A stretch of DNA of 64,000 nt, from IMG/VR virus record IMGVR_UViG_3300002494_000025, positions 71,375 through 135,374 of that record, one strand, 5' to 3'. Position 1 is the first letter of the stretch; every line of letters begins with the position of its first letter. The stretch is from a virus. Below, piece after piece: positions 1 through 58,715 of the stretch. The position numbers and the translations under genes were made by a program. Below the pieces are notes generated by a model, which worked only from the letters and a program-made list of their open reading frames with translations, made no database searches and was not told where the DNA came from.

Positions 1-747
1 TTCATTACGTTCAGAATAATTAATTAAAAAGTAATATTTATATTCATTTTCCTTTTTTAATTCCAATTCTTCGTACAATTCAAAAATATTTTTCTATACC
101 TTTGCAGGATACCAGTGTTCGTTATCGAACGTTACCCGCTAAGTTATTGTATCCGGTAATAGATACTAACCAGTTGGTATTGACTGTATGATTTTTTGTT
201 CCACATAGTTACTACCACTGAATTCGAAGTAATCAGTTATTTTTTGTATTTGACTAACTGTAACTGGAAATGTGATTGAGTAGTTATTATCAATAATTGT
301 TTGGGAGTCAACGGTGATATCCTATGTATCAATTTGGGTATATTCGATGTTTTGGTTTTTACTATATGACAACAACAAATTTGATAGTTTGATATTTACA
401 TATGAACCCGGGTTAAGGGTAAGTGATGATGTTATATCCCCACTGTTGTATAATTGTGGGTTCGGGAAATAAATTGTAACATAGATGTTTGATGTTGGTG
501 GAAACTACCACAATCTATCGTGTGGGTATAAATCTAGTATAGAATGAACATTTTCGGGATCAGTTGCACTATCGATAAATTGTTCGTTGAACTAAACATC
601 TATGGATTCGTTTAAGAATGTCTATAGATAAACGATCTATGATACCAATGAATTAATTGCAGATGATTTTGATGTATCTAAATTTGGGTATTGGTTTTTC
701 AATGATACTAAAAGTTCTTCTTTGATTTTATCTGGTGTTATATTCAT
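1..747 (-). CDS. Baseplate wedge protein, T4 gp6-like (runs off the window edge; TAG=Ala)
   Basis: RBS plus ATG at 747; INSLVS*IVYL*TFLNESIDV*FNEQFIDSA resembles the gp6 N-terminus; frame open to position 1 apart from TAG. Confidence 0.7.
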
Positions 748-766
748 TGTGTTCACCCCTTACATG

Positions 767-2026
767 TTATAGTAAATATAATTTTGAATTGGATTGGACA
801 GTAAGTTCATTTATTGTGTTTAATAATTGGGTTTTTATTTCATTAGATAAATTAGAATTATTAACCAGGGTTGTTAAAACCGATTTAAGATTGTTAACAA
901 ATTCATTCAAATCTTTTTTACGTACAATCTAATATTCATTCATTGCATCGTTTAACTTGTTAGTTGTTAACATGAATTTATAATTGTTGTCATTTGAGTA
1001 AACTGAAAATTTGTTAACTTTTAGAGAGTACTCATGTGTATCTATGTATATACAATGCTATTGTTGGTTATAGTTTTCGGATGACATGTTTATAGTGTCC
1101 TATGAAATACCAACGGAATTCGTCTATTTCATCTAAAAGGTATTTGTTGTAAAACTAACACTTTGAGTATTACTGTTGAGTGTGTTTGTATTGAGAGTAA
1201 TATTATTTTGCTATTTTATTTCCTATGTATTACCGTTTGTTGTTATTGTATTAGATATAAGGTTAATTGAGTTTGTTGATGATAAAGTTTTATCTGTATC
1301 GTTGACAATTTTTCTTAATGTTTCCGTGATATTTTTACTTTGGTCGAAAATAATATCACCTGTAACTTCTAAATTACCATACAACTTTAAGGTGGTATTG
1401 TTGGTTTCAATAGATACTTTATTTAATGTAAAAGATGCACTGTTGGTATTGACTACAAAAAGATTATTTGCGAACTTATACTTCATCAGTTCATTTTTAT
1501 CGTCAAATATCAAATTGTGTTTTTGTGTTCTTAAAGTTAAACCATTCAATTGTATGTTTGGATTGTCATAAATCTATAAATATCTTGTGAATGTAGGATT
1601 ACCAAAATAATATACACGATTAAAATTTTGTTCTACCACGTCTTTACCAAAATCCAAATTGTTGTGAATGTTGTTAATAGTTTTTCCATCAGAAATGAAT
1701 ATATTGAACGGTATGTAATAGAAATCGTTATCATAGGTAAGTCTCAGTACCACAACATAGTCATTGATTTGTGGAATGGTGATGAGATTACCCAACAATG
1801 GTTTAACAAGAATACCGTCGTTTGTGTTTGAACACAGTTTATGGATATAAACTGTGATACAACCGACACAGTACAATTGTTTGTCAAGGTTATTATTAAT
1901 AACTCTACCAATGTACACATTGTCGATTTTGTAGAATGTACTATCATTAAAAATATTTTTAACATCATCATTAAAGTTGTAGATTTGGTTTATGTAATAC
2001 TGGAAATCGAAATCCAGATTTGACAT
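767..2026 (-). CDS. Baseplate hub/spike protein, gp5/gpV-like OB fold plus beta-helix (419 aa, TAG=Ala)
   Basis: Joins ORFs 1574-2026 and 1223-1549 through TAG and ends at TAA; YIGRVINN...IPQINDYVVV OB-fold pattern followed by T/N-rich repeats. Confidence 0.65.
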
Positions 2027-2043
2027 TTATATCACCTTTTACA

Positions 2044-2865
2044 TTATAGTGATATCTTTTTAATATTAACGTTATTAACATTTGTAAACATTTTGGCCAT
2101 ATTGATTATGATATTGAACAACCTACTGATGTGTTTAAAGTCGAAGTTTAGTTGTGCGAGATATAAATCGTAGAATACACTGTTTTTCAACATTTTGTTG
2201 AGTTCATCTTCGTTTATATCAACGGGTTTTATATCTGACATATCTGAGTCTTCTTGGTTTAAATTAAAATTAAAATCTGTGTTTGTGTTATAAACATCGG
2301 GTGTATTTTGTATATTTTGTTGTGTATTTAACTAATCAGTGGATGAAGGATCAATAGAAATACCACCCGGAGTTTCTGTTAATTCCGGTTCATTGACGGT
2401 TACATTATCTTTGTTTTTTGTTTCATCATCTTCAATGATTATGTTGATTAAATTGTTCATTGCCATGTCAAATTTGATTCTTTCAAGAATGTATTTGTCT
2501 ATTTGTTTTGGTTTCTTTTTTTCAGTAGTTGTTTTAACAGTTTGTTTAATGCTTTGTTGAAACAATATTTGTTTATATGATTGATTTAAAATTTTTAAAT
2601 ATGAAATTATATAACCCAAATCATCAAAATATTTGTTTATTTGGGTTCTGTACAACGATAAAAAAAGAATAGATGATTTGTAACTTAGTAATACTCGTTG
2701 TAACATTTCCAAATCTATGATAATGGTATCAAGGTCATTTGTTAAAAAACACTTGATGAAATCGTACAGTAGTTGTGTTGTTTGTGTTTCATCATTTATG
2801 TCGATTTCTAATATTTGTTTAAAAAAATCCACTATTGTGTATGTTTGATTGTTTTTTGGTTTCAT
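2044..2865 (-). CDS. Hypothetical phage protein (273 aa, one TAG)
   Basis: GGGAG RBS plus ATG at 2865; ORFs 2332-2895 and 2044-2241 are in frame across one TAG; TAA stop. Confidence 0.7.
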
Positions 2866-2892
2866 CGATGTCACACTCCCATAAAAAGTTTT

Positions 2893-2931
2893 CAATATTA
2901 AGTTTGAAACAAAATCATAAACTTAAATATG
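2893..2931. promoter_or_regulatory. Back-to-back copies of the putative late promoter motif AAACTTAAWAWTG
   Basis: AAACTTAATATTG on minus (2893-2905) and AAACTTAAATATG on plus (2919-2931) between divergent genes; motif recurs more than 12 times in intergenic DNA. Confidence 0.6.
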
Positions 2932-2958
2932 AAAATAAATACTGATTGGGTGGTGTAA

Positions 2959-9091: not shown

Positions 9092-11203
9092 TCACAAGAT
9101 ATCAATATTATCATCGGTGAATTCTTCATCTAAAAACACACCATACTATACTTGTATTATGTAAATTGATTGGTTTGTTTGTTCATATTGTTGTATGTAT
9201 TTTTCGGATTTTTTAACTTTCTATAATATCTCTTTTAGTTCGAATTGTATACGTTCTTTTATCTATGACACATCAAATTTATATGTTTTGATACGTGTTG
9301 TAACATCGATAACATCGGGTATTTGTTTAACATTTTCAAGTTGATGTGACTAAGTATCGTACATATCTTTCAAAAATGAACGGATGATTGATAAATCAAA
9401 TTTATAATCCTTATATTGTTCCGAAAGTTTTTTAACTAAATTGATTCTATTATCTTTTGTGAATTTAATATCTATTGGTAGTTCTAATTGTTTTAACATT
9501 TCAATTCTTTCTTCACTAAATTCTTTTAATAGGTCTTTTACAATATTGTGCATGTTTTTGTTAATCAATGAAAATTTATCACGGTCGACAAGTTTTACCA
9601 ATTCATCTGAATTTCCTGTTAGTTTTCTTAGCACAACACCCTCGATTTCTTGTTGTTTTTCATCTGTGATGATATCGTTGACATACTATATTAAAATATC
9701 TTTGATATTCAACATATAGTTACTTCTAACATAGTTCTATAACATCTCCCGGAGTTCTTTTATTTGTTGTCTATATTCTTTTGGAACTCTGTTTAATTTT
9801 ATTGTTATCTATTCAAAAACTGTTAAATCCTTAAATTGGGTAGGAACTGATATATCAGGTATCTCACTTAGTTTTTTGTTCAAGAATTGTTTCAATTCAT
9901 TGAGGTGTTTTTCAATTTCAGTTTTAACTTTAGAGAGGTATTTGTTAATATCGAAATACTCCACAGTATCAACAGACCAAGTTTCAGAGATTTGTTTCTA
10001 TACAATATCATCATTTTCAAGATCTGGTACATACTATGTTACGTTCACTGTTATTGGTTCAGTTGATTTAAGTTCTTCATACAGTGATAATAAATCCTTA
10101 TCAAGTTCATTAATATCGATGTTACTATCTGTAAATCGTGGGAGTGGTCTTAAATAGATTGTTTTTGATGTTGAACTATTGTATTTTATTGTGTTTGTGT
10201 ATAACGTTGATACCAATTCACACTCCCATTCGATTTGTTTACCATAATATTTGTTAAGATATTTGTCAAAAATATTTTTATATTTTTGATACAATGTAGT
10301 AACAAACTATGTCTAACTTCTAATGGCGTTATACTGTGGGATTTTAGGTATTTCTTTCCAGTTATACCATGGTATCTATTTACCTCCGAACGATTTACGA
10401 CGGATTGTATATATTTGTCCATTTGTATCGATACCGAAGGAAAGGTTCTAAACACCATCGATTTTGATTGATGTTAATAATGGTTCAGTTTCATACAGTA
10501 TCTATTCAATATAGTCAATGAATTCATTTACTGGGATATCTTCAATATGTGAAATTTCAGTTAATAACTATTCTGACACATTCTATTTAGATACATTTCT
10601 TTTTGGTTTTGGTGTGAATATATCATCACCATATTCTTGTTTTAGGAAGTTAACATACTCTACAATGAGATCAAACAATTGAAGGACTGGTGTTGCAAGT
10701 AATTGTTTCTATGTTTCATAATCACCATTAAAGAGTGCATTTCTCAGTTTTGTCTAAGAGATTTCATCGTCTGATTCAACATTTCTTGGAAGTTCTTCAA
10801 CTTTAATTTTGTCACTAAGATTTACACGTTTTAATTGTCCTTCATATGTTTGTTTTCTATCAGTTCCACAGTAAACCTTTACGATTTCAATGTCATCATA
10901 TTTATTCTTTATGTATTCGCTAATATTTGGTATATATCCAACATTGAATACTTCAACGATCTAACTTTTATTGTATTTATGTTTTAAATCGTTTATGATA
11001 GCTTTAATAAATAGTGTTCTAAGTTCCTAGTCAAATGGATTTTTGTAGACATCTTGACTTGTTTTACTACCCTATATTATCTATACAATGACAACATCTA
11101 TATCATTATCTCGGAATGCAACTTCCAGTAATTTTTGATGCTATTTTGTAACACCTTGGAATCTACCAAGTATTAGTCCACCTCTAAATATTTTTTTATC
11201 CAT
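9092..11203 (-). CDS. Cytidyltransferase/NMNAT-like (HIGH) domain fused to a KxDG ligase-like nucleotidyltransferase domain (703 aa, TAG=Ala)
   Basis: GRFQGVTK*H, NPFD*ELR, CGTDR and IS*TKLRNAL, then HIEDI, IKIDGV*NL, IEGVVLR and VKLVDRDKFS; single frame closed by TGA at 9092. Confidence 0.8.
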
Positions 11204-11240: not shown

Positions 11241-12863
11241 TCAAATTTTCAAAATCCAATCATAGTCATTATTGGTTATGTTTTCAGTCTCATTATTTAC
11301 TTCTTGTTGTTTGTTTTTATTAATGATTTTTTTACTCTCTTTTAAGTTTATTCTGAGTATTGTGTTTTCAATATGTTCAAATGTCTATTTTAAATTAATC
11401 CGATTTTGTTCAATCAACTGATTTCTCTAATAATATGCAAATGACAACTACATTACAAGGTCGTCATTATATCCATGTTTTGCTTGTGGTTTACCACCAC
11501 GGTATACAAAGACTAGTAACTCACTTATAATTCTTTCACTTCTGATATTTTCTGGAAATTCAGTAACGTATTCCTTCATCTATTTCAATATTAATGGTCG
11601 GGTAATTGCAGTAGTAATGATACCGTATGTACGAGTTTGGGATCGTTTTTCGAGATCTTGTGTGTTGATTTTCTATTCTTCTTTTGTACTGGAGATGTAT
11701 TTGTCGATGAACAAATTTGAATAACCTTTTTCACGTAGACGTCTTGCAACCTATAATCCCCATCCACCGGTAACTTCTATCTATATCGACTATGTGTTGT
11801 AATATTTACCAATCTCTATTAATACATCCTAATATTCAACATCTGATATATGTTTACTTGTAAAATCCTATACAACTTTACCATCTTCGTCAATTACAAC
11901 GAACTAAGACTAGTCATTTGACATTCCAGAAGCAACGTCTACGCCTATGATATACTATTTATTTTCCTTCACTTCTTCATACATATAAACTTCCCAACCG
12001 TTAATTTCAAATGAACTTATTGGTTTTTGTTGTGACTTTTGTAATTTTTCTAGTGTTACAGAATCCAAGTATGTGTCATTAGATGAAATGAAATGTAACT
12101 CTAATTCTTGCATTATTGCAAGATGGTCATTACCAAGTATTTCACATTGTTGTTTGTACCATGTATCGTCATAATACGGAATATCTCTCCAGTGGAATCT
12201 GAACAATGTATATGGTGGGTTATCTGAATTTATCTACTATTCATAATATCTATAGTAATCATTATCCACACCATTGGGTGTTGAATTGAGGATAATACCC
12301 CATGGAATACCAGAATTCTATATCGTAGCAAGTGTTGGTGCTAACTATTTTAACTATTCTTCAAGATTTGGGACAAACTACTACTCATCTACAATAACAG
12401 TTGACAATCTAAAAGAACGAAACGGGTTATTCGTATTACCCTATCGGATTACACTACCGTTAGAAAAATGGAGAGACTTTTTAAGAGGTCTCTCCAACTT
12501 AGGTAACCATGAAATTTTTGATAATTCGGAAATCTCATACATTTCTTTTATGTCTTGTAAGAATTGGTTTGCTTTATCTTGTTCAATTGATAAGATACCG
12601 ATATAGTATCTACTATAAAACAACTACAACCACAGTGATAATGCTTGTAATGTAGTGGACATACCTGTTTGTCGTGATTTTAACACCAACATCTTATGTT
12701 TTTCCAACCATAGTCGAATAAATTCTTTTTGTTTTTCAAACATTTTAAATGGTACAACACCCATTCTTTGATTAAAAATTTTTATATAATTTTCAATAAA
12801 ATAAATGGGGTCTGTTTTACATTTTAAATATTCTTGTATGTTATCGAGTTTTGTATTTTCCAT
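11241..12863 (-). CDS. terL: Terminase large subunit (T4 gp17-like), 540 aa, about 22 in-frame TAG
   Basis: KSRQTGMST (Walker A), VIVDE**F (Walker B), ILNSTPNG, IGVDVASG, GYNDDLVM*L; TGA stop. Confidence 0.95.
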
Positions 12864-28233: not shown

Positions 28234-28324
28234 GTATCCAGAAAACAATATTTAATAAACTTATATATGTGAAAATAAAGTATGAAAAAACTTCTTGATT
28301 ATACCAAGTAAAGGGGTGTCAACA

Positions 28325-31381: not shown

Positions 31382-34300
31382 ATGGCATTCAAATTTGTTC
31401 CAAAACAAAACATGACACCTGACGAAACCTTGAATAAAATAAGTGAAACACTCGATGATCTTAATCAGACAATTCATCAACATCAAACACAATCATTCAC
31501 ATCAACACAAATTGATTGGGATAAAATACAAAAATCGTTAGAAAATATAAGTAACAAATTGGACAAAATTGTTAACACAAGTTTACTAAATAAACAATTG
31601 AATAATAATAATAAAACCCCACAAAATGTATCTGAACAGATTGTTAAAGAAAGAAAGGATACAATGTTCAGAGATAAACTGATGAAGTCTCTCAATACAA
31701 TTGGAAATATACTTGGTAGTATATTGAAGTCTTTTAAACCAATACAGATAATCGTAAATTTATTTGGTAGTTTTTTTAAGGTGTTTAACAAATTATTTAA
31801 TTTCCTTGATAAATTTATATTCAAATCAAAATGGTTCACGTGGATGTTTAAAACAGGACATATTTTACTTGGATGGTTATACAAATACATTTTGTTAAGT
31901 ATTTTCAAGGGGTTTTTATCATTAGGTAAATTCATTGCAAAACCATTTACATGGTTAGGTAAATTAATTACACCATTACTTGGATGGTTGGTTAAACCAT
32001 TGGGATAGTTATTTACACCATTACTGGGTAAAGTTTTGATTAAACCATTAGAGTGGTTATTTAAACCGTTAGTCGGACTTTTAAAACCAGTATAGTCTTG
32101 GATTGTTAAACCATTTAAAAAAGCTGGTTCTACAATTGGTGGGTGGTTTGGTAACCTATTTAAACGTAAAAAGAAAACTGTTGTAGAAACAGTTGGTAAT
32201 ATGGTAGGTGGGCAATAGACTGGAAAAGCTTAGGTTGAAACATAGAAACAAGGTGGATTTGGACAAGGATTAGGAATGGTATTTCAAAGTTTATAGAGTG
32301 GTTTAACGATGTTGGGAACACCACAATAGTTGTTAGGATAGGCAACCGTTGTAGTTTTTTAGATTTAGCTAAGAATTTTACGTCCAATACTTGAAACACT
32401 AATTGGTAAAATTTCAGAAGTTGTGATTGAAATCGTTCGCTCAATAACCGAATTGACAAAATCAGGATACAATACACTTATCGAAACTTTAAAAATATAG
32501 TCAGATTTATAGAAAAAAGGTCCACAAACTGCGAATAATTTTAAAATCATTGCGGGCGGGATAACGCAACTGTAGACTTAGTTTTCTGAATTTTTTTTGT
32601 CTCTTGGTACTTCTAACGTATTAAACGCAATTAGTGGTTTTATGAATGTAATAAATCCTGCTTTCTGGTTTAAGGAAACTCGTAAAGTATTACAACAAAA
32701 TACACCATAGGTTTTGATCGGTAAATTCTTTAATGAAATAATATTCCCAATTGGTGATTTGTCAAAAACAATAACTGATTCACAATAGAAAAACTTCGAA
32801 GTTTTGTCTAAAAGTATTGAGACAATTATAAATAGTATGTCAACTCTGTCAACTACACTTTCAAAAGGACATTGGAAAAGTTTTGTAAACGGTATAAAAA
32901 GTTTCTTTACTACCATCTTTGGTGGTAACAAAAACAAAGAACCACAAGTCATATCACAATTTAGGACTATAGTCAATTTATTATTTGATAATATCTATTC
33001 AACAATTAAAAATAAAAATATACAAACAGTTGATATGATGAAAATAAATTGGTTTGTTTCAATTGTTAATAAAATGATAAACATGTTAGATACCTTATCA
33101 AAATTGACTATCACAGTACAAGATAAACTGATAAATAATCTTAAACCACTTAATAACAAAAACACTATCAGTAAACTAATCTCAAACTTGGTTAATTTCT
33201 ATGATCAGTTAAAACAACAGATTTACCCCTTAATCCAATAGTATAAAAGTTTTTACAATGAAGTTTATCAACAAATAATGGGTGACAAATCCATAACAAT
33301 ACCAGTTGATGCTAAACAAAATATTGTAAATAACCTAACACAAACATTGTCACAAATGTCTACAAACCTAATTGGATTTAAATATGGTGGTTATACTGGT
33401 AGTGGTCGAACTGATGAAATATAGGGTGTCGTCCATAAAGGTGAATATGTTATTCCATAGTAGTTGGTTCCAAAATTCAAAAATGAAATTGATAAAATAG
33501 AAAAAGAACGACTAAAACTACTTGGAACTAAAAAGTATGTTGAATCATTATTAACATTATTAAAAGCAAATTTGAAAACAACAAACATTATTGGATTTGA
33601 AGAAGGTGGTTTTACAGATTTTGGACTTGTTTTAACCACAGTACCACAAACACAATCACAAATAAATATCAATATTACACCAGATATTAAAATTTCAGGT
33701 AAGGGAATTGATACAAGTATTATTCAACAAATCATATTACAACTTTCTACAATGATCCTTAAAATACTGTCTTCCATTAGTGGTACAATTTCCAAAAAAT
33801 AGGATGTAATAATAAACGAAAACTTTATAGAAAAATCCACAACAGATAAATTACAAAGTGTATTTACAAATATAACTGAAAGTATCCTTAAATTACTCAC
33901 AGATAACTTACTTACAAAAACAATAGATAATATACTCCAACACATTACTGAAAAACAAAATTTAGATACCCCCATCCAAACATTACAACAAAATGTAATT
34001 ACAATCTTTTAGAACATGTTTACAGAAATATCATCAATGTTAACAAATATTCTACAAAATGTATATAATACAATTTTTAATGGATTAGTTGGGGGATCTA
34101 TTATATTTGTCATAACCACCTCACTAATTAACAAAATAACAGATATAATTACTAACAACATATCAAATGTTGTACAAAGACTTGTTGTAAGTGTTGTACA
34201 ATTTGTTGGAGATAATATCACCAATAGTATTGATACAATCATAAAACAAATGTCAAATTTACCAATTCTCCAACAACAACTTGATGAAATCAACAAATAG

Positions 34301-37300
34301 TTAACATCAGACAAAAATATTAACAAGGATGTTAAAACATAGTTAGAAAATCAAAAACTAACCCTTAAAGAACATGAAGAACAAATTGGTTCAACACCCA
34401 AGGATATTAAGTCTGTTGTAGAAAAAGTATCTACACTAAAGGGAACTCTCATTATAACTATTTCTTCAATGTAGAGTATAATCTTAGATTTCATAACATT
34501 CTCATTGACTAAACTGAATGAACACATATTCAGTAATAATCTAATCAAAACGTTGACTGGATCTGTAACATTAATAAACTTATTACCCACAATCACCAAT
34601 ATCATTATCAAAGATATACCAACTCTTTTAACATCTGTCATGTCAAGTATCACTTCAAATATTTCAAATATTCTCGATACACAAATAAAGGAACTTACTA
34701 ATTTACAATTTCAGGACTTAGTAAAAATTATACAAGATGTTTTTGGTACTAATGAAACAAAAAAAGAGACACAAGAAGAACAGAAACCACCTAAACAATT
34801 ATCAGAATAGGTTATCAAATTAAAAAACACTACTGTTGATTTAATCTCATCAACTTGGATAACCGTTATGGATATAATTGATTCTATCTTAGGAACATTT
34901 AATTTCCTTCTAAACAACTCTGTTACAAGAGGTTTATTAAATTTTGTTGGTAATTAGTAGGTAGTATTATCCACCATATATATGGGACTACTTACAACTG
35001 TGGTTATACCAAAAATAATCAAATTTTTTACATCAACTATCCCAAGTATACTTAATGATGCTATTAGTTATGTAACGGATGTCTTACCAAAACAATTCAA
35101 AAAGGTATTAATATCTCTTAAAAGTGGTAAAATCGAAACTAAATCCATTAACATACAAGAAATCATATCAACTATAGTAAATACTGTTTTGGATCTAACT
35201 GGTAAGATAATAAAAAACAATTAGCTTGATACAGATAAATATCAAACGATGATTATGAGTGACAATGACTTTCTTAAATCCATCGGATCCATAATGTTAT
35301 TTATGACACCGGCATTGTCATTCTTTGCAATGTCACTTATCAGTAATCTTATGACACCGATTACCGATATGTTAACAACTATATTCAAACCAGAAAACAT
35401 ACAAGGTATTGTGGAAAGTATGACAGTCTCAGATTTATCCAAGATCGTAACTACTGTAGTAACATCTGTTTTTAACATAATCACATCCGTAATTTCAGCA
35501 TAGTTCAATATGGTTACAAATATGAACATTATTACATCTGATCCCATAACAATGTATATCATGTTGGGATTACAAACAGTACTAATGGTTGAAATGATAG
35601 TTCTAATGGATTCTATAAAAGGACACGTTAATACAATCTTGTCTTCAATTGGTAGTTTGTTAAGTACAATGTTCAAACCAGAAATTGTAGAAGGCGTAAT
35701 ATTAGACACATCATCAGATAAATTGTACGATTTATTCCAAAGTATTGTTACAACAACTGTTACAATGGTTACAAGTTTAACTACTAAAGTGTTTAATTTG
35801 TTGTTTGATGATAAAACATCAAATGAACTTATAAATAGACTTAACCCATTGAATATGATTACAAATTTGGTTACAAGTCTTGGAAAACTCTTTATCGGTG
35901 GATGGTTTGTTATTAGTCTTACAGGTGTATTCCAAAATATACTATCACAAATCGGTTTGTTGCTAAATAAAATTACTACTGATATAGATGTATCAAGGTT
36001 TGATGTTAATAAACTCGATACGTTGATTAATACTGTTGTAACCACAACAGTTACAGTTGTGAGTAATATACTTACAATGTCTTTTAGTTATCTTACAGAT
36101 GAGAAAAGTATAGTTAAAATTCCAATAATTAGTGATATACAAAAGTAGATTGTTACATCATTTATATCATCTGTAATAAGTGGTTTATTAGAACCATTCA
36201 AATCAATAGTAACATCAATAGTCACATTGTTTGGTTGGATGTTTACAGAAAAAAATATTAATAATATGGTTAATAAAATGAGTACTACAACTGTTGATAC
36301 AATCATAACAGATATTATAAATACCACACTGACGATGTTAACCAATTTAATAACAAGTGCGACAAATATACTTACAACAACACTGTTCAATATATCATCG
36401 ACTGGTGGAATATTCGGATAGCTTATGGGTTTAATTATCGATACAATGATAGGTGGATTTATGACATCATTTATAAAAAATATAACAACAAATCTGTCAA
36501 CTATATTTAACAATATCACAACTCTAATAAATAGTCTTATGATTAAACTATCCAGTGATACGACATTATCACAACATGTTGAAGAGAATGGTACAACAGT
36601 AATTAATAATATACTTACAGAAGTAGTAAACACTGTATTTCCAACAATGCAAACAATTATAAGTATTGCATTACAAAGATATCAACAATCAAATAAAGGA
36701 ATGTTTGAAAGATTACTTAATAATTTTCTTGGATTTTTGTTCGGTTCTACAAGTGGTTCATGGGATCCAATGAGCGACCTTATCAACAATATAATTGTAA
36801 ATATACCAACATTGTTTACCCAAATGAGTACTTTTATAAATAATTTATTCACACAACTGTCAAATGTTGATATACTCAAAACTGTTTTGTCTGAAAATAT
36901 TGACCTTGTAAAAGATATTATAAAATCAATAGTTGACAACATTGTTAGTATTACATTAAAGACCACATTACCAGAAATTGTTAAAATGGGTATGGAAGGT
37001 AAAATAAGACGTAAGAAAAAAGATATATCACCAATTGAAGAGTTCTTTAACATCTTTGATAACACTATTGGTACTGAGGATATGTTTATGGAAGATATAT
37101 AGAAACCAATTTTATCAAACATACCAACCATCTTTGGTTATATACAAACATAGTTTAACAACATCTTAGACCCGAAAATTTTGAATTATTCACAAATACT
37201 ATAGGATAGTGATACTGGAAAAACTATTATAATCTCACTGTTTAATGCTGTAATTGATTCAATATTCAAGTCTTTCTTTAGTATGGTGTTTGATAAGGAT

Positions 37301-38896
37301 AATTTAGAGAAAAACATAGAACTTTTATCCGTTAAAAAGAAAACCACACAAACATGGTTCTTTATACCAATTAGTGAAACAATAGAGGAGATAAATCCAT
37401 TTGTAACATTGACAACAGATTTATTTAGTAAACTACCAATTCTATTTGATAAAGTCATTAATGGGTTTGATAGTTTAATTACACAACTAGTATCAAGTGA
37501 TACATTTAAGAATATTGCAACAGATAATAAAACGATTATAGAAATGACAAAAATATTATTTTCTTCTGTTCTAGATATGATACTAAAAACTGTAGTTGGT
37601 ACACTATTGACAAATGCAATTGAAGGAAAATTGAATGTAATTCAAAAAAGACTTGTTACAGAAACAGTTACTACAACCAATGAATCTGGTAATACTGTAG
37701 TACAAACTATACAGAAAGAAGTATCTGAAAAAATAAACCCATATATTGATACTGTGTTTACACCAATTCTAAGGAGACTACCACAAATATTTGAATTGAT
37801 TTTTGGTACAACAGATAAACCAGGTGCGTTTGACAAAATACTTAATAGTATTGATATTACAAAAATCGTAACAAACGACATTACACTACAGACAGAATTT
37901 ATTAAGAGTATTTTTAATTCAACACTTGACATGATTTTTAAAACATTATTACCCGGGTTAATTAAAGCAGGTATATCCAGGAAGTTTAGACAAACAACAA
38001 CAACGACAACCGGGTGGTGGCTCTGGTAGAAAACTGAAACTAAAACAATGGATAGTTTCGTAGAAAATGTGTAGAAACCAATCTTAGAAAAATTACCAAG
38101 TATATTCAATCGTATATCAGGTGTGTTTGGAACTATACTTGATAATCTGAATGTTAATGATATGTTTAAACAGGATACAGATTTACCTAAAACATTTGTA
38201 AAAAGTATTTTCGATAACACAATTGTTTTTATGTTCAATACTTTAGATAATTTACTCAACACCGAAAGTTCATGGAGTATTGATAGATCGTTATTAGATA
38301 CCATCAATGCTACAAAAACATCACTTTTGACAAGTTTTCAAAACATGAGTACTGCAATTGATACTATTATCTCATCAATTAGTACAACAATACAATCTAC
38401 ACAACTTGATACAATACATATTAACAATATCGTAAGTAATCTTGTACCAAGTATTTCAAATGTTTTCAATCACATGATTACAATTATTATGGATTCGGGG
38501 GTTTTGGATGCATAGATTAACGTAAATGTTGTAAACGGACTTTGGAATGTACTTGAATAGTTTGTAGATGAATTATCATCACATGCACCAGATATCGCAG
38601 GTTCTCTGTTTGGTTCTTTAACGTTTAATTTTGATTACGACGAAATGAAACGAAAGTTAACAATGACATTCACTAACATATCTGAAATTACAACGGAGTT
38701 CGAACGACAAAAACTCGAACTTATGACAGAATAGAATACATATTTATCCCAGATACAATCAGATGTATAGGAAATTAAAATATTACTTAGTCAAATTAAA
38801 GATAATATCCTTAACAATAATAACAATAATGGTCGACAACAAGTAGTATACCAAAGTAGAGATGTTGTTAACTATATAACATCCGGATTGAGATAA
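31382..38896 (+). CDS. Tail tape measure protein, 2504 aa, TAG=Ala
   Basis: Twelve listed ORFs in one frame; amphipathic W/F/P repeats; GGYTGSGRTDEI*GVVHKGEYVIP** motif; TAA at 38894. Confidence 0.85.
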
Positions 38897-39491: not shown

Positions 39492-40931
39492 ATGACAAAA
39501 GATACAGTTGGTTTAATACTTGAAAGAAATTGGAATACTTACAAAAACGTTATTGTAGAGAGTGCATTCAAAAATTATTATGGTAAACAGACAAATAACG
39601 TCCAGAAAGAAGTATTAAAGATATTACTTGAAAATACAAAAAGGAACATGATTACTGAAGGTCTTACAACATCTACACAGGCATCTATTGCAGTTCCTGT
39701 TATTCTTGGTCTTACAAAGAAATTCTTCCCAAAACTTATTGCGAACGAGATCGTTTCTGTTCAACCACTTACAAGACCAACTGGTATTGTGAAGTTCAAG
39801 AAAATTAGATTCCAGGATGGTCGTGAGCTTGCAAGTGATAAAACAGATGGTCTTCTCTCAACTGATACATCATTTGGTACTGAACAGTATCAATCACTTA
39901 CACAACGTGTTTCTGTATCAATTGCAGGTGGTGCATCAACAACTGTTACATTGAATGGTGTACAACCACCATTTAAGGGTGTACAGATTGGTTCATTTAT
40001 GGTTAAATTACCAAATGGTATAACAATACCTGAAGTAAATGGTACCATAGTTGTAGATGAGTTTAAGATTACAATTAATTACTACACTGGTGTAATTACT
40101 GTTCAAAATACGGGTAATAGTACCACCCCAGTTAGTAAAACGTTTGATGTTATTTACAACACCGTTGCATTTGAAACGAATTCCCCAGACACAATCGGTA
40201 GAGTATTCTTTGACTTTGAAAACATTCCAGTTAATGCAATAACAAGAAAACTCAAGGCCAGCTGGACATATGAATTCTTAGAAGATATTCAGGCCGAACT
40301 TGGTGATCTTATCAATTTTGAGCAGGAAGCATTTGAAGATGTTTCTGCAATAATTGCTGCTGAAATCAACAGAGAAATAATTATGGATATAATCAGTGGT
40401 GTTCTTTCGTATGGTAGTAATATTGTTGAATGGCACTATAATCCAGCAACATTGAGTGGTAACAACTGGTTAACAGCAGAAGCATACTTCAGAACGCTTA
40501 TACACAAAATTAATGAGGTTGCTGGTAAGATCACAAGAGCAACAAAGAGATTTGAACCAAACTTTATAGTCGTTTCACCATACACAAAACAGTTCATAAT
40601 TAATGGTCTTACACAATATGAATGGAGACCATCCGAGAATGTTACTGATGCACTTGACTATGCAAAGATTGGATTTGCACTCAGTGGAACAATTTCTGGT
40701 AAATGGAATATGTACGTAACACCAAGTATTCCTGATGGTTATATTATTGTTGGTTATAAGGGTTCTGGTGTTGCAGACAGTGGTTATGTCTATGCACCGT
40801 ACATTCCATTGAAGGCAGTACCAATCACATACGAATCAATTCCTGGTCTCTACTTCTACACAAGGTATGGTAAAACTATGTACTCCCCATGGTACTACGG
40901 TCTTGTAAAGATTCCTGAACTTCTTTCATAA
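39492..40931 (+). CDS. Major capsid protein (T4 gp23-like)
   Basis: PKLIANEIVSVQPL..PTG, RKLKASWT, EINREI, VGYKG...YAPYIPL; no internal TAG. Confidence 0.95.
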   Translation: MTKDTVGLILERNWNTYKNVIVESAFKNYYGKQTNNVQKEVLKILLENTKRNMITEGLTTSTQASIAVPVILGLTKKFFPKLIANEIVSVQPLTRPTGIVKFKKIRFQDGRELASDKTDGLLSTDTSFGTEQYQSLTQRVSVSIAGGASTTVTLNGVQPPFKGVQIGSFMVKLPNGITIPEVNGTIVVDEFKITINYYTGVITVQNTGNSTTPVSKTFDVIYNTVAFETNSPDTIGRVFFDFENIPVNAITRKLKASWTYEFLEDIQAELGDLINFEQEAFEDVSAIIAAEINREIIMDIISGVLSYGSNIVEWHYNPATLSGNNWLTAEAYFRTLIHKINEVAGKITRATKRFEPNFIVVSPYTKQFIINGLTQYEWRPSENVTDALDYAKIGFALSGTISGKWNMYVTPSIPDGYIIVGYKGSGVADSGYVYAPYIPLKAVPITYESIPGLYFYTRYGKTMYSPWYYGLVKIPELLS

Positions 40932-46837: not shown

Positions 46838-47108
46838 CGTCAATTTATTATAACACTTTTTGTTTTCTTTGTCAAGACAAGACAATAAGCAATAACAATA
46901 AGTATAAAATTGTAATAAAATAAAAATACAAATTTCAACATTATAGAATGTGTACAATGACAATGTAAAACAATTATGTAACTTAATTGAGATAGTACTA
47001 TCTTACTGTGGAAAGAAAAACAATGGAACAACATATTTGTCAAGATCAAAATTAAATAAAGATTGCAAATCTCAACATATTATTATATGAAACGTGTGAT
47101 ATAGATGT

Positions 47109-47184
47109 GGGGCCGTAGCTCAGTTGGGAGAGCACTACCCTTGCAAGGTAGAGGCCGTGGGTTCAAATCCCATCGGCTCCACCA
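47109..47184 (+). tRNA. tRNA-Ala(UGC)
   Basis: 76-nt cloverleaf GGGGCCG...CGGCTCC ACCA, anticodon loop CTTGCAA, G3:U70. Confidence 0.95.
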
Positions 47185-47356: not shown

Positions 47357-47432
47357 GGGGGTGTAGCTCAACTGGGAGAGCAGCGGTCTCTAAAACCGTC
47401 GGTTGCGGGTTCGAACCCCGTCACCTCCACCA
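47357..47432 (+). tRNA. Amber-decoding tRNA (anticodon CUA) with alanine identity, tRNA-Ala(CUA)
   Basis: GGGGGTG...CACCTCC-A-CCA gives G3:U70 and A73; anticodon arm GCGGT-CTCTAAA-ACCGT with CTA at 47390-47392; normal D and T arms. Confidence 0.93.
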
Positions 47433-47438
47433 GATTTT

Positions 47439-54289: not shown

Positions 54290-54295
54290 AAATGA

Positions 54296-54669: not shown

Positions 54670-54714
54670 GTAAAGTAACTTATTTTCGGACTTGTTGAAA
54701 GATTCTCCAAAACA

Positions 54715-55839
54715 ATGATGAAAGGAGTGGGACATATGGAAAATATTACAACAAAACTACAACAACTGACATTTTATGTTAAACAAACATCGGATAAGAA
54801 TGAAATGATATTCAGATGTCCGTTACATGAAGATAGACACGGACATCTGTATGTTTCTTCAAATTTAGAATATATCTGTTTCAAATGTGGAGTAAAGGGG
54901 AATAATTTCTTAAAATTTTTGTTAAAACACAATAGTTATCTGGATAATAATGATAAACAAATACTTATTGATATATTATCAAATTTAATGTTATCAGAAA
55001 CCCATGAACATGAAGATACGGTTCGTAATGATGAAAAAGAACAAGAAATTGACGAACAGAAAGTTCGTCTGTTCCATGAATTGAAAATATTGTTAAAAAA
55101 TTATACCAAACGAAATAAACAAATAATTTACAAATATTTATCTGATACAAGAAATATAACAGATAGGGATTATATAGATGATTTAATTGAACAAGGGTAC
55201 ATTCTATTTTATAGTAAAAAGTTATACCGGACTGTAAATAATTATACGAAATCAATTTTTGGTAAGAAGATGATCTATGTAAACCAGGCAATTGGATTGA
55301 CAGTACCAAATAGTGGAATGTTACAGTTTCGTGTAATAGATAAAGACACCAATATACGGTATTATATTCTAAAATCGAAAGAAATTAGTCCAAACACATC
55401 TTTCTATATTGGAAACACACGAAACCCACAAACATGTATAATCGTAGAGGGGATTTTTGATGCAATCAAACTTGATTATTTACTTAGAGAACATATGGAT
55501 AATTACATCGTCGTCGCATTAACGGGAAAAACTAACGTCAACACAATAATCGAACTACAAAACCTTTTACGTTACAATGTATCTGTATATATAATAGCAT
55601 TGGATATGGATGTTGATATGTACGACATAAAAAGGGTGTATAACAAAATTAACGAGAATAACCAGAACATGACACCACATGTGTATGTTTTAACCAAGAA
55701 AAACAACGATGTAACAGATAAAGATTTTGATAATATACACAACTTTGATGAGTTTAAAAAGAAGTTTGTGCTTGTAAATTACGTAAAATACATAACCAAT
55801 ATATGGAAACTATCAAATCTATTTGATGTTGAGGAATAA
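54715..55839 (+). CDS. DNA primase (Zn finger plus TOPRIM)
   Basis: CPLHED..CFKC zinc finger, IVEGIFDA and ALDMD TOPRIM motifs; TAG-free; likely start 54736. Confidence 0.9.
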   Translation: MMKGVGHMENITTKLQQLTFYVKQTSDKNEMIFRCPLHEDRHGHLYVSSNLEYICFKCGVKGNNFLKFLLKHNSYLDNNDKQILIDILSNLMLSETHEHEDTVRNDEKEQEIDEQKVRLFHELKILLKNYTKRNKQIIYKYLSDTRNITDRDYIDDLIEQGYILFYSKKLYRTVNNYTKSIFGKKMIYVNQAIGLTVPNSGMLQFRVIDKDTNIRYYILKSKEISPNTSFYIGNTRNPQTCIIVEGIFDAIKLDYLLREHMDNYIVVALTGKTNVNTIIELQNLLRYNVSVYIIALDMDVDMYDIKRVYNKINENNQNMTPHVYVLTKKNNDVTDKDFDNIHNFDEFKKKFVLVNYVKYITNIWKLSNLFDVEE

Positions 55840-56536
55840 TAAAATAAAAGGAAAGGAAGGTGAGTATATGATAATCGTGTTTGAGGGATTGGATTTTTCA
55901 GGTAAAACAACTCAGATTAAACTATTCAAACAATATCTCGAATCAAAAGGTTCAAATGTTGTCACACTAAAAGAACCAGATGACAATATATTTCCAGAGT
56001 TAAAATTTGTAATTAGTAAAAAGAAACTACAACCACAAACTGAACTATTCTTATTCCTGGCAATGCATGTTGAGTTAACAAGAAAAATATATGAATTGTT
56101 CCATGAAAGTGATATAAACAATATACCAGACGTGATAATTATTGATAGATTTGTATATTCTACATTAACATATCAGGGTGTGGGACGTGGGATTGGATGT
56201 AAACTCATTAAAATGTTAACAGATCACTTTGTTAAAATTAACGTAGGTGATAAAACATTTAAAATAGAACCAGATTTAGTGTTTTATATCGACATCCCAC
56301 CAGAAGAAGTATTGAAAAGAAGAAATGAACTCAAGAAAGAAAAATCAAATTTCGATATGGAGTCTATTGAGTTTTTCACAAAAGTAAGAGACACCTATTT
56401 GAAACTGGTCAAACAACATAATTTCGTAGTATTAGATGGGTTACAAGACATAGAAACAATCCACCAACAAATTGTTGAACATTACAAACGTATGTCTAAC
56501 ATATTATATCCAAATAGTGGTATTGTTGAGTGTTGA
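55823..56536 (+). CDS. tmk: Thymidylate kinase
   Basis: FEGLDFSGKTTQ P-loop, IIDRF, YQG and PDLVFYID motifs; likely start 55868. Confidence 0.93.
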   Translation: MMLRNNKIKGKEGEYMIIVFEGLDFSGKTTQIKLFKQYLESKGSNVVTLKEPDDNIFPELKFVISKKKLQPQTELFLFLAMHVELTRKIYELFHESDINNIPDVIIIDRFVYSTLTYQGVGRGIGCKLIKMLTDHFVKINVGDKTFKIEPDLVFYIDIPPEEVLKRRNELKKEKSNFDMESIEFFTKVRDTYLKLVKQHNFVVLDGLQDIETIHQQIVEHYKRMSNILYPNSGIVEC

Positions 56537-56548
56537 TAGTGTCAGACT

Positions 56549-56588
56549 AAAAAACGAGGGTGGGTATTTAGTACCCACCTCTTTGTTT
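56549..56588. terminator. Bidirectional intrinsic terminator
   Basis: GGTGGGTA...TACCCACC hairpin between convergent tmk and endolysin genes. Confidence 0.75.
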
Positions 56589-56594
56589 GTTTAA

Positions 56595-57317
56595 TCAAAT
56601 CCAATCGATTGGTGTATTCGGTCGACGTCCTTTGTATGGTGGTTTATATGGTGTGGGGGGATATTCCTCAAGAATTAGTTTTTTAAACTTTTCAACATTT
56701 TTTGTATCGTTAGTTCTATACTATACCTATATGGTATATGCATATTGGTGGTCATAGTGAATTCTGTCGTCGTATGATTGAAAGTCCAATCCAGAACGTA
56801 ATCCCAAATTGTTCTATTCTTCTGCCAATACTCTCCAAACTGCATGGTTTTTTATTCTTGAATTAACCTACAATTCTTTACCATCCTTGTATACTACAAT
56901 TGGTGTTATATCTATCTATATACCGAAATTATGTGGTGATATCTTTGGTGACTTTCCTTTTATGACATTTAAATTTGAATTATTTACTGCCAATTCTTCT
57001 TCAACAGATCTTACAGTATCATTGACTTTAATCTTCACATTGTACTTTTCCCACATAATATCAAAGAACTTTAAAAATGTTTCAAGAGTCTTAGGAACCA
57101 TCATATCAACATATGGAAATATCAATGTATATTTTTTACCACGTAAATTTTGGAACTCATATACACCAATCTAATCGTTCACTGGTAATCCGAATACAGT
57201 ATGTGTAAGATAAGTGTGTTTAGATTTTATACCATAATTTGTCCAAAATCTGTCTTTTAACAAATTCTGGTATATTTGATCTTTTTTATCTGTTACTGTT
57301 CTTATTAACCGATACAT
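56595..57317 (-). CDS. Endolysin, M15 (L-Ala-D-Glu peptidase-like) family, 240 aa, 6 TAG
   Basis: TVRSVEEE, SPHNFGI*IDI (SxHxxGxAxD), *NNLGLRSGLDFQSYDDRIHYD; TGA stop. Confidence 0.85.
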
Positions 57318-57336
57318 ATTATATACCCCCAAAGTT

Positions 57337-57741
57337 TTATTGTTTTACAAATAGTACCCATACTTTGTTATTTCTACTATCGACGTCAATTTCAGTTGGT
57401 TTATGTGTGTTGATAAATACTAAAGTTTGTTGTGGATTTTTACTATAAATTATAAACACCGTATTGTTTATTTTATATACAAGTTTTTCTGAATCAGTAC
57501 TGATAAGTTGTTTTTTATCGTACTGTTGGAAAAACACCTATATATTCTCTAGAGGTGTATCATTTAATGGTGTAACGATTACAACATATGAATCCACATT
57601 CTGTTGGACGTCGTCCCATACTAACGTCGTTTGTGGTTGATAATTTATATACGATAGTGTCATACCAAAAACAACTAAACCAACCAACTACAAATATACG
57701 TATGTTAACCAATTGGAAAAATCAAGATGGAAGTTAAACAT
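57337..57741 (-). CDS. Membrane-anchored protein upstream of the endolysin (lysis accessory candidate)
   Basis: N-terminal WLTYVYL*LVGLVVFGMTLSYI helix; two TAG; TAA stop. Confidence 0.6.
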
Positions 57742-57761
57742 GGATTATCACCCCCGTAATA

Positions 57762-58715
57762 TTATGTACGTAATTGTTGTCTATCAAGTACGATTGTTTG
57801 CTTCTAAGAGCATTTTATAATACTATTGTTTAATTTTGTATTGAGTACAACATATGGTTGGGCATATACAGCTTCATCGGGTACTTGGTATATATCCAAA
57901 TATGTTATTTGTGTAATAGGATTATCTTTTGTAATTGTAACTTTATCTAAACTCCACACATTTGCATTGTACATATCATTTATAATCTTGGAGTTGTTGG
58001 TATTAAAAAGTTTAAAAAACACGTACTATTCCTATGTATATTCATTTGATAGAGGATCTATATGAAAATTTGTATTAACTGATATACCGTCAATATTATT
58101 CTTTATTTGTTGAAGTGGTGTTGGTATTTGTTCATAATGTTCTTCTTTTACAATTTGTGGATATGCAATCCAGAATTCTTGACCGTCTGGGACATTTGTA
58201 AATCGAACACCATATTGTACATTGGAAGACGTGTTGGGTGTAAGTGACATTTCAACTTTTGTCCATTCGTTTGCTCTGAGACTGTATGTTCGTGTAGCGG
58301 TTGCAACAACAGTGTTACCGTAATCTGGGGTAAGGTAAGCTAAAAACGATAGTGTAAGGTCCGTACTTGTTTTGATATAAAAACTGAGAATGTATGTTAC
58401 TCCCACATTAACGGGTATGTATGGTGAATAGTTATAAATATATGTGTTACCTTCTACATCACGTTTAGCTCTACCATAAAAAACTTTCCCCCAGACAGGA
58501 TCATCATACTGAGTGGTGGAATACCAGTATGTTGCACTATTCCAATGTGTCCATTTACTCCAATCCTGACTTGCTCCAGGTTCGTATTGGTCTATTATGT
58601 TTGTTAATTGATATCTGGGGTTTAGTTTGAGGTTGGTTATATTTATCTTTTTTAACTACATTACAAACTATTTTAATGGTTGGTTTTGGAAATTAACAAC
58701 TTTAGTAACACCCAT
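57762..58715 (-). CDS. Virion protein with carbohydrate-binding-like domain (317 aa)
   Basis: RBS plus ATG at 58715; joins ORFs 58032-58406 and 57804-58022; IPVNVGVTYILSFYIK...WTKVEMSLT pattern. Confidence 0.6.

Follow-up and report, generated by a model that had tools for sequence, protein, structure and literature searches.

The window analysed in this study comprises the final 64,000 nucleotides of one contig of 135,374 bp, IMG/VR virus record IMGVR_UViG_3300002494_000025, and its subject is how the codon TAG is read in this phage. The results demonstrated that TAG is a sense codon, which interrupts the frames in a pattern far beyond chance, and homology together with the features of a phage-encoded tRNA with the anticodon CUA, hereafter tRNA(CUA), indicates that TAG is very probably read mainly as alanine. 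Alanine is supported by four independent lines, namely the acceptor stem of tRNA(CUA), the profile decoding of conserved proteins, the interchange of GCN and TAG in close relatives, and the occurrence of the same tRNA type elsewhere, and none of these leads to glutamine. The window is best explained as containing the greater part of the late region of a myovirus-like phage of ca. 105 kb, which comes from a hot spring and is associated with Fervidobacterium.

TAG in the reading frames and the amino acid assigned to it

Under the standard code the window contained short open reading frames (ORFs), and reading through TAG joined these pieces into long frames, as the initial annotation had noted. 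ORFs of at least 300 aa covered 0.11 of the window under code 11 and 0.655 of it when TAG was taken as sense, as compared with 0.178 for TGA and 0.230 for TAA; the comparison of coding density that had been proposed thus showed that TAG, and not TGA or TAA, restores long ORFs. For the whole contig, the cover by such ORFs rose from 0.27 to 0.62 with TAG as sense. Of 46 ORFs of at least 80 codons lying wholly inside 767-58715, 33 carried in-frame TAG, including a probably spurious one at 47120-47581 on the minus strand, which overlaps the tRNA genes. Together the 46 ORFs contained 253 in-frame TAG in 17519 codons, as against 223 GCN codons. Long joined frames included those of the tape-measure protein, the terminase and the NMNAT-like protein (Table 1) and two frames of 1814 and 1421 aa with 26 and 24 TAG, respectively. 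In 95 ORFs of the core of the contig, TAG occurred 386 times in frame 0, 449 times in frame +1 and 459 times in frame +2, and its distribution by decile along the core genes was even (43, 50, 42, 47, 30, 29, 36, 45, 36 and 28). Because TAG is as frequent in frame 0 as in the other two frames and is evenly spread, these codons are not leaky terminators near gene ends. The ORFs of the whole contig ended with TAA in 76 cases and with TGA in 41, endings at TAA or TGA being given by construction.

All coordinates and motifs of the initial annotation, including those of the NMNAT-like gene, were found in the sequence. Thus, TAGTAG at 12378-12383 on the minus strand gives IVDE-X-X-FVP in the terminase, TAG TTA TAG stands at 28853-28861 within the gp13 motif, the tape-measure stretch 33422-33463 starts with TAG and finishes with TAGTAG, and HNFGI-X-ID is present in the M15 peptidase. 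Among the starts described as ATG followed directly by TAG, the ORF at 3413 was confirmed, and GTGTTGTGTATGTAG starts at 29057. The sheath gene indeed ends with CAG TAG TGA at 28144-28152, which did not extend to a pattern: such tandem ends were found in two of the 95 ORFs against 1.17 expected, and their interpretation as a dual-code safeguard was rejected for this lack of enrichment.

To assign an amino acid to TAG, four genes were translated with X at TAG, namely those for the terminase (TerL), the sheath, the NMNAT-like protein and PhoH, the last encoded by this phage immediately beyond the window. Any homologue containing under 3% alanine was removed as a suspected recoded relative, and among the matches listed 111 of 120 were kept for TerL, 103 of 120 for PhoH, 114 of 150 for the NMNAT-like protein and six of eight, all standard-code, for the sheath. 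The homologues were aligned to the query with phmmer and weighted, and each amino acid was scored on the column profiles in the manner of Codetta. Usable TAG columns numbered 38 of 64 (TerL, 22 of 22; PhoH, 6 of 10; NMNAT-like, 7 of 23; sheath, 3 of 9). Over these 38 columns the score was +24.0 nats for alanine, -22.3 for serine, -23.4 for glycine, -30.3 for valine and -48.8 for glutamine. Alanine ranked first at 14 of the 38 columns (0.37), as compared with 0.48 for true GCN-alanine columns, and glutamine at none. In the control, 19 amino acids decoded as themselves in at least 199 of 200 subsamples, cysteine having too few columns; true CAA/CAG columns decoded as glutamine in 200 of 200. The tally at TAG columns that the initial annotation had suggested therefore gives alanine as the best fit, and neither glutamine nor serine.

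Individual motifs agreed with this result. In the terminase, both X residues of VDE-X-X-F were alanine in 107 of 111 homologues, and of the 22 TAG columns 9 had alanine as their top residue and none had glutamine. In PhoH, the X of GKTLL-X-L was alanine in 97 of 103 homologues and that of NN-X-IVIVDE in 69 of 103. The TAG columns did not align with glutamine in standard-code homologues, as genetic code 15 would demand.

The whole contig contained three RNA genes, all adjacent: tRNA-Ala(UGC), tRNA(CUA) and a transfer-messenger RNA (tmRNA), which starts 6 nt past the CCA of the suppressor tRNA. In a covariance-model alignment, the acceptor strands of tRNA(CUA), GGGGGUG and CACCUCC, form G1-C72, G2-C71, G3:U70 and G4-C69. 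The tRNA has the discriminator A73, an encoded CCA and a 7/5 cloverleaf, and no other tRNA with this anticodon occurs on the contig. The pair G3:U70 serves alanyl-tRNA synthetase (AlaRS) as its major identity element, and AlaRS does not read the anticodon; the identity of tRNA-Ala was reportedly worked out in 1988, by Hou and Schimmel and by McClain and Foss. The alanine identity elements G3:U70, A73 and G2-C71 are all present in tRNA(CUA), and its acceptor ends are identical in type to those of the neighbouring tRNA-Ala(UGC) and tmRNA. Since all three RNAs carry ends of this type, all are expected to be AlaRS substrates, and tRNA(CUA) would be charged with alanine by the host AlaRS. Genes for AlaRS and for a release factor were both searched for on the contig and neither was found (positive controls, 14 of 14 and 10 of 14 genomes, respectively).

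The phage tRNA-Ala(UGC) was 93-95% identical to Fervidobacterium tRNA-Ala genes (0.91-0.93 to two such genes compared directly), and for the phage tmRNA, identity to its counterparts in two Fervidobacterium genomes was 82% and 79%. The suppressor as a recent copy of a host tRNA-Ala was considered and rejected, since its identity to these tRNAs was just 0.70-0.72. ARAGORN labelled the CUA tRNA as 'Pyl', a label based on the anticodon alone; lysine scored -50.6 nats at the TAG columns and tRNA(CUA) fits the ordinary tRNA model end to end, a search for pylS, pylB, pylC and pylD not having been made. Self-BLAST showed that the leader of tRNA-Ala(UGC) is duplicated in front of tRNA(CUA) (contig 118390-118508 versus 118643-118756, 85% over 120 nt). 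A promoter scan around the module gave 7 sites as against 6.0 expected, and found no consensus sigma-70 site before the tRNAs on the plus strand. Two paralogous genes lie 3' of the tmRNA (window 47892-48383 and 48616-49086), each with one TAG and several GCN; the duplicated segment (contig 119087-119745 versus 119824-120467) is 84% identical over 663 nt. In addition, one DNA contig assembled from the hot-spring sample joins 47089 to 51970, omitting the tRNA-tmRNA module, and long loose ends occur at 47062, 51958 and 51995. This joint may represent a variant without the module; its shorter side measures just 26 letters, too few to count.

The nearest relatives of TerL, PhoH and the sheath in ENA and Logan assemblies were 87% to ca. 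37% identical and contained 0-2.7% alanine; a TerL search in IMG/VR returned no relative. The database proteins of these relatives show Q at most of the TAG columns of the phage, for example at 22 of 22 in P0001 and 10 of 10 in P0129, and the TAG positions are kept in the relative of 87% identity. In 28 low-alanine relatives, Q stood under the phage TAG in 210 of 373 cells and under phage GCN-alanine in 51 of 139, as compared with 1.3-7.4% under other residues and 45% under true glutamine. The occurrence of Q under TAG and GCN-alanine alike is expected if Q stands for TAG and TAG is synonymous with GCN. Hence, the Q of P0001-P0009 and P0129-P0145 is apparently TAG written out under table 15.

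Occurrence of the same tRNA type in other phages

A suppressor-based pattern found 28 loci in IMG/VR with 12 tRNA(CUA) genes, of which one (L015) had both G3:U70 and A73; a stricter tRNA pattern again returned L015 alone. The record carrying L015 was identical over 14.1 kb to Aeromonas phage AhSzw-1 (MG676225.1; genus Shenzhenvirus). As in the window, AhSzw-1 has a tRNA(CUA) with G3:U70 and A73 directly beside tRNA-Ala(UGC), and its TAG decodes as alanine. The two suppressors are 86% identical, closer to each other than either is to its adjoining tRNA-Ala, which is 70% in the window. Unlike the hot-spring phage, AhSzw-1 is a cultured T5-like siphovirus with a gammaproteobacterial host, has no TerL match and shows normal GC, GpC and GCN-alanine (GC 43.8%; GpC observed/expected ratio, o/e, 1.06; 32 tRNAs). 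When TAG was taken as sense, ORFs of at least 300 aa covered 0.429 of AhSzw-1 instead of 0.159, and 674 in-frame TAG were counted.

Against the solved T5 pb4, 25 TAG columns of AhSzw-1, read off a printed alignment, contained A7, S4, T4, G4, N3, P2, F1 and Q0. Against a whole standard-code T5-like genome, the 179 TAG columns contained A57, K25, S18, E14 and D8 with Q5, and in the likelihood calculated from those alignments alanine was best, with lysine at -63.5 and glutamine at -113.6 nats. The GenBank record of AhSzw-1 is annotated under the standard code and is fragmented, pb4 being uncalled and pb3 appearing as a 465-nt fragment. The records of four other Aeromonas phages of this genus, AhSzq-1, AhP_Mru1, Akh-2 and vB_AdhS_TS3, the annotation alone being inspected, likewise follow the standard code and are fragmented under the pb4 match.

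A scan of metagenomes yielded 51 loci with the same tRNA type, 63-87% identical to the tRNA(CUA) of the window. At 23 of the 31 loci of at least 5 kb, ORF cover rose specifically with TAG as sense, and the code is therefore unlikely to be rare. TAG-bearing PhoH genes were present at 14 metagenomic loci and fell into five lineages with at most 49% mutual identity. TAG scored as alanine in four of the five (+11.4, +12.7, +9.8 and +2.6 nats; glutamine, -8.9 to -23.0), and the fifth has two TAG columns only. Since AhSzw-1 and most metagenomic lineages have normal GpC, loss of GpC is not required for the code.

Nine metagenomic loci with GC 0.24-0.28 and GpC o/e 0.08-0.55, a sister clade of the phage of the window, each carried a single tRNA(CUA) together with one to three tRNA(UUA), with acceptor ends as in the window suppressor. 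Five of them (L143, L154, L157, L168 and L171; GpC o/e 0.14-0.55) encode terminases 42-43% identical to that of the window (E ca. 1e-89), and four are shorter (L123, L127, L132 and L162; GpC o/e 0.08-0.44). The decoded terminase frames of L143, L171 and L154 contained 64-66 TAA, 12-13 TAG and 0-2 GCN and were bounded only by TGA. At 45 usable TAA columns alanine had the sole positive score (+13.0, +4.6 and +3.0), serine being at ca. -29, and 7 usable TAG columns in these terminases also favoured alanine. Judged by these alignments, the five related contigs appear to read TAA as alanine too, UGA then being the only stop. Nine further ORFs of L157 gave no Pfam match and no second gene family could be scored, so the terminase is the one family behind the assignment of TAA. 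ORF cover was rejected as evidence for TAA as sense, because at ca. 24% GC a TGA-only stop fills the contig with spurious overlapping ORFs. L157 also carries a divergent class-I release factor (Table 1) with an intact GGQ and SPT as the presumed codon-reading loop; the corresponding loop is SPF in RF2 and P-x-T in RF1.

With moderate confidence, we propose that alanine-type stop-suppressor tRNAs are members of a single mobile family through which phages of unrelated hosts repeatedly acquired a 'stop = alanine' code. On this proposal, the lineage of the window would have purged GpC and GCN and write half of its alanine as UAG, and the sister clade, with a divergent release factor of its own, would read both UAA and UAG as alanine and stop at UGA only.

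Alternative readings and a proposed mechanism

Several points weigh against alanine as the meaning of TAG. The amino acid is deduced from homology and tRNA features. Alanine is the top residue at the above 14 of 38 columns alone, and 26 of the 64 TAG columns were unscorable; homologues within a family are not independent, for which reason column counts matter and pooled residue counts do not. Two PhoH columns disagree: at column 152 TAG stands at an invariant glycine (103 of 103), the first Walker A residue, and at column 306 at a near-invariant aspartate (102 of 103). The Walker A motif starts with [G/A], which column 152 would fit, and the mismatch at column 306 may be an alignment slip. In AhSzw-1, lysine (25), serine (18) and glutamate (14) are common at TAG columns; these are read as one-step mutational neighbours of TAG, and could also reflect some ambiguity. 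The contrast set, 11 IMG/VR tRNA(CUA) loci without alanine identity, yielded no usable phage with proven TAG-to-glutamine recoding: these loci showed no TAG-specific gain and none of them matched the reference families. Among Fervidobacterium tRNAs, tRNA(CUA) is closest to tRNA-Gly(UCC) (0.78) and tRNA-Trp(CCA) (0.76), followed by tRNA-Ala (0.70-0.72), and in its anticodon arm it is similar to host tRNA-Trp; it may be mischarged in part, or may have to compete with release factor 1. The equation of Q with TAG in the relatives is a deduction from protein sequences. The DNA run used for the comparison of assemblies (X1) is probably the sample behind the assembly of the window, which makes its sequence non-independent. 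Finally, the avoidance of TAG by the major capsid gene (0 TAG, 26 GCN) is not explained by TAG as alanine.

One alternative is that TAG encodes glutamine, as in code 15, in crAss-like and Lak phages and in the public translations of the relatives. The Q at the TAG columns of the closest database proteins favours it, as does U35, which amber suppressors keep and which is an identity element for glutaminyl-tRNA synthetase (GlnRS); moreover, in the available text of Borges et al. (10.1101/2021.08.26.457843) and Peters et al. 2022 (PMC9523058), TAG-to-glutamine is the only TAG reassignment of phages. However, glutamine scored worst of the five amino acids listed above and topped no column, although the same procedure recovered true glutamine codons in every subsample, and it was disfavoured likewise in AhSzw-1 and in four PhoH lineages. 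The Q of the relatives, which contain so little alanine, pairs with phage GCN-alanine in the 51 of 139 cells noted above, which fits a gene caller writing TAG as Q, and G1-C72, G3:U70 and A73 of tRNA(CUA) differ from the acceptor set of GlnRS. We therefore regard glutamine as highly improbable. Scarcely credible is the reading in which TAG has remained a stop codon and the genes either are the decayed remains of a dead prophage or arose as artefacts of sequencing or assembly. The record is classed in IMG/VR as a provirus with a CheckV completeness of 76%, and the contig ends look chimeric, as this reading would have it; yet TAG alone interrupts the frames, its positions are kept in the 87%-identical relative, and a dedicated suppressor tRNA is present. 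In addition, the phage region exceeds the host fragment in depth ca. 15-fold, and a separate assembly reproduces 45000-61270 with no listed difference in the tRNA or endolysin genes.

Ambiguous or incomplete decoding, in which alanine is mostly inserted and a substantial share goes to a different small residue, to near-cognate read-through or to termination by release factor 1, so that mixtures of products result, appears quite unlikely. Serine and glycine are the next-best fits, serine trailing alanine by ca. 12.5 nats in the PhoH group of L128 and by ca. 13 in that of L158, and no release factor or visible anti-RF1 function occurs on the contig. The major capsid protein, the most abundant virion protein, is encoded free of TAG as if decoding were costly, and the phage-borne tmRNA could rescue stalled ribosomes. 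Against this, single genes such as those for the terminase and the tape-measure protein contain 22-41 TAG, so that the full-length product would be lost if even a modest fraction of ribosomes terminated at each codon. Furthermore, tRNA(CUA) lacks the long variable arm of tRNA-Ser and reportedly the identity elements of tRNA-Gly, and in this phage alanine exceeds serine by 46 nats.

With alanine as the meaning of TAG, the mechanism is proposed to be as follows. The phage tRNA(CUA), bearing G3:U70 and A73, would be charged by the host AlaRS; as AlaRS ignores the anticodon, the host enzyme can charge it and a phage synthetase would be unnecessary. Once the tRNA is made, ribosomes would put alanine at the in-frame TAG codons counted above, in structural, packaging, lysis and some metabolic genes, and would terminate at TAA or TGA, release factor 1 presumably being out-competed at TAG. 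TAG-free replication and recombination genes would be readable under the standard code of the host before the suppressor builds up. About three-quarters of GpC has been lost from the genome, nearly all GCN with it, and TAG would supply half of the remaining alanine.

In some chlorophycean mitochondria, UAG is a sense codon for alanine or leucine. As in these mitochondria and in yeasts that read CUG as alanine, a codon would have been captured for alanine, which is easy in principle since AlaRS ignores the anticodon; unlike these organellar or nuclear changes of a whole system, a virus would here impose its code on a cell that very probably uses the standard code. The yeast case concerns a clade of budding yeasts (Shulgina and Eddy 2021, PMC8629427, available text). 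Natural G3:U70 allo-tRNAs given the anticodon CUA 'efficiently translated the amber codon' in E. coli, with alanine inserted, according to the available text of Mukai et al. 2017 (PMC5389517). These share G3:U70 and CUA with the tRNA of the window and differ from it in being engineered tRNAs of the 8/4 or 9/3 type, whereas the window tRNA is a natural 7/5 cloverleaf in genome-wide viral use. Compared with TAG-to-glutamine phages (crAss-like, Lak and other gut phages), the likenesses are TAG in late, structural and lysis genes, TAG-free early and replication genes, a phage tRNA(CUA) and reliance on a host synthetase; the difference is that glutamine is attached by GlnRS with the help of the anticodon, and here AlaRS would be hijacked for alanine through G3:U70 in the acceptor stem.

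For phages with a code unlike that of their host, the available text of Borges et al. describes only TAG read as glutamine and TGA read as tryptophan, and that of Peters et al. TAG-to-glutamine; accessible parts of the literature on recoded phages also mention TGA-to-glycine where the host has that code too. Cook et al. 2024 (PMC11210395), in the part available, describe recoding occurring 'sporadically' in Demerecviridae and label it as table 15. No publication on TAG as alanine in a phage was found in a search that included the accessible text of Borges, Shulgina and Eddy, Mukai, gTranslate and Cook, the supplementary table of Cook et al., which possibly lists recoded Demerecviridae, lying outside the search; a paper naming AhSzw-1 that was searched as well contains nothing on stop codons. 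The initial annotation had called the code an undescribed viral one. As far as searched, this holds for the assignment to alanine, stop-codon recoding of phages as such being known, and it needs amending for Demerecviridae, where recoding had been seen as table 15.

If the proposal of a mobile tRNA family holds, some share of the phage genomes assigned to code 15 is mistranslated, with glutamine in place of alanine. Gene callers limited to tables 4, 11 and 15 fragment such genomes, as in the GenBank entry of AhSzw-1, or appear to write glutamine for alanine, as in P0001-P0009 and P0129-P0145, which would introduce errors into protein databases, structure predictions and motif searches. TAG-to-alanine would be a new entry among natural genetic codes and one of a different principle, AlaRS reading the acceptor stem: any G3:U70 tRNA can point at any codon, and a virus could impose a change of code with one small gene. 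The code extends beyond this phage, and the cultured Aeromonas phages make part of the system testable at the bench. The hot-spring lineage joins dinucleotide avoidance, proteome composition and code evolution, its relatives seeming to encode alanine only via former stops.

Gene content, composition and ends of the contig

The features are listed in Table 1.

Table 1. Features of the window and of related loci (window positions unless a contig or locus is named)
Feature	Position	Strand	Evidence or remarks
TAG-recoded part of the phage genome	1..58715	.	GC ca. 0.27-0.32, GpC o/e ca. 0.14-0.50
Cytidylyltransferase/NMNAT-like N-terminal domain and further domain, 703 aa, 23 TAG	9092..11203	-	Pfam CTP_transf_like; 333 matches in representative search
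Large terminase, 540 aa, 22 TAG, 10 GCN	11241..12863	-	Pfam Terminase_6C
Tail sheath, 622 aa, 9 TAG, ends TAG-TGA	26284..28152	+	Pfam sheath domains
Head-tail adaptor ('gp13'), 248 aa, 8 TAG	28295..29041	+	PHROG phrog_211, E 5.4e-16
Tape-measure protein, 2504 aa, 41 TAG	31382..38896	+	PHROG tape-measure families
Major capsid protein (Gp23 type), 479 aa, 0 TAG, 26 GCN	39492..40931	+	Pfam Gp23, E 9.4e-50
Leader 5' of tRNA-Ala(UGC)	47016..47108	+	duplicated at 47269-47356 before tRNA(CUA)
tRNA-Ala(UGC), host-like	47109..47184	+	ARAGORN, Rfam
tRNA(CUA), amber suppressor with alanine identity elements	47357..47432	+	ARAGORN; Rfam tRNA model, 67 bits
tmRNA, tag peptide ANEYIPLAA	47439..47798	+	ARAGORN; Rfam RF00023, 204 bits
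Primase (54715-55839) and thymidylate kinase (55823-56536), TAG-free	54715..56536	+	Pfam
M15-family peptidase (endolysin), 245 aa, 6 TAG	56595..57332	-	Pfam Peptidase_M15_4
Fibre-like protein with CBM-like domain, 317 aa, 5 TAG	57762..58715	-	translation, self-BLAST
nrdG and nrdD	59022..61497	+	Pfam; TAG-free, normal alanine content, ca. 80% nucleotide identity to Fervidobacterium (G003), phage-level depth to ca. 61270
mutS	61535..64000	-	Pfam MutS domains I-V; 84-85% protein identity to Fervidobacterium; depth 22
DnaN sliding clamp, 422 aa, 0 GCN, 0 TAG	contig 57840-59108 (L031:17840-19108)	-	no alanine codon under either code
Sister-clade terminase (example)	L143:9064-10545	-	TGA-bounded frame
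Divergent class-I release factor	L157:13076-14143	-	Pfam RF-1 domain, E 1.3e-29; best NCBIfam prfB, 115 bits, far below cut-off

In-frame TAG is found in structural, packaging and lysis genes, such as those for the terminase, tape measure, sheath and endolysin, and is absent from the genes for PolB, DnaN, an SNF2 helicase, a RecA-like protein, an Mre11-like phosphoesterase, the primase and thymidylate kinase (Tmk). By gene content this corresponds to the split between late and early genes in TAG-to-glutamine phages, and the timing of expression would follow the same line. Exceptions are the TAG-free major capsid gene, and PhoH and a radical SAM enzyme, which carry TAG. The capsid gene contains 31 GpC, 5% of all GpC in the core.

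This core, ca. 105 kb of the contig (about 26.7-130.1 kb), has a GC of 0.27-0.32 and a GpC o/e of 0.26, GpC being the sole strongly deviant dinucleotide (others, 0.74-1.28). GpC is depleted in every NGCN context (0.11-0.63), and all codons that contain it are rare. GCN-alanine makes up 1.24% of core codons versus 7.14% in the flanks, and TAG accounts for another 1.24%, so the proteome would hold just ca. 2.5% alanine. GCN was low in both TAG-rich and TAG-free genes (1.09% versus 1.44%), which makes a trade-off between GCN and TAG uninformative. Loss of GpC may have become affordable for this lineage through the code.

The initial annotation had placed the end of the recoded region at 58715. 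This is the end of the last TAG-bearing gene, and phage-depth DNA continues through nrdG and nrdD to ca. 61270. The segment nrdG-nrdD-mutS matches one Fervidobacterium genome continuously with 80% DNA identity. In contigs of a DNA run and an RNA library from a hot-spring sample, depth was ca. 330 from 45000 to ca. 61270 and 22 over mutS, i.e. ca. 1/15 of the phage depth; this comparison covers the right junction in contigs of one sample. The contig of depth 330 differed from the window at 26 positions within 60981-61215 inside nrdD, and the mutS part was matched by a depth-22 contig of 13738 nt with zero differences. The region 45000-61270 was reproduced by sample contigs with few differences, none of them listed in the tRNA genes or the endolysin gene. 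The RNA library possibly contains DNA and so gives no measure of transcription, and parts it leaves uncovered (e.g. 51340-51973) are uninformative. From the step in depth from 330 to 22 (window 60981-61271 and 61242-64000), together with the 26 differences, nrdG and nrdD are read as phage-borne copies acquired from the host; the mutS end is probably Fervidobacterium-type host DNA joined by assembly inside nrdD, neither an integration site nor part of the phage. At the right junction, phage and flanking host DNA were not continuous at equal depth as in an integrated prophage, and the 'provirus' label of the record is doubtful.

Short matches to the phage flanked by a 30-nt CRISPR-like repeat were observed in contigs of the same sample (window ca. 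50433-50468, 53878-53907, 56169-56205 and 58303-58335), and suggest CRISPR spacers against the phage. Two copies of this repeat with 3 mismatches each occur in one of five Fervidobacterium genomes, the closest metagenome-assembled genome (G003:C17), which provides a weak link to a Fervidobacterium host.

The leftmost 25 kb of the contig, which lie outside the window, have a GC of ca. 0.43, normal GpC and the standard code, and contain a second complete set of head and tail genes, a siphovirus-like module with YqaJ, TerL, an SPP1-type portal, an SU10-type capsid protein and a tail tube. The junction gene (contig 22485-26717) is a fibre-like frame of 1410 aa that contains three CBM_4_9-like repeats and extends from this module into the DNA that is poor in GpC and bears TAG, and the composition switches near contig position 24.7 kb inside one CBM-like repeat common to both parts. 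The left junction is either a chimera or a recombinant. The CBM-like domain DNA at the other end of the phage (129518-129978) repeats the sequence of this gene (24880-24420) in inverted orientation with 85% identity; a mis-join by the assembler at this repeat was rejected, since the copies are merely 85% identical and inverted.

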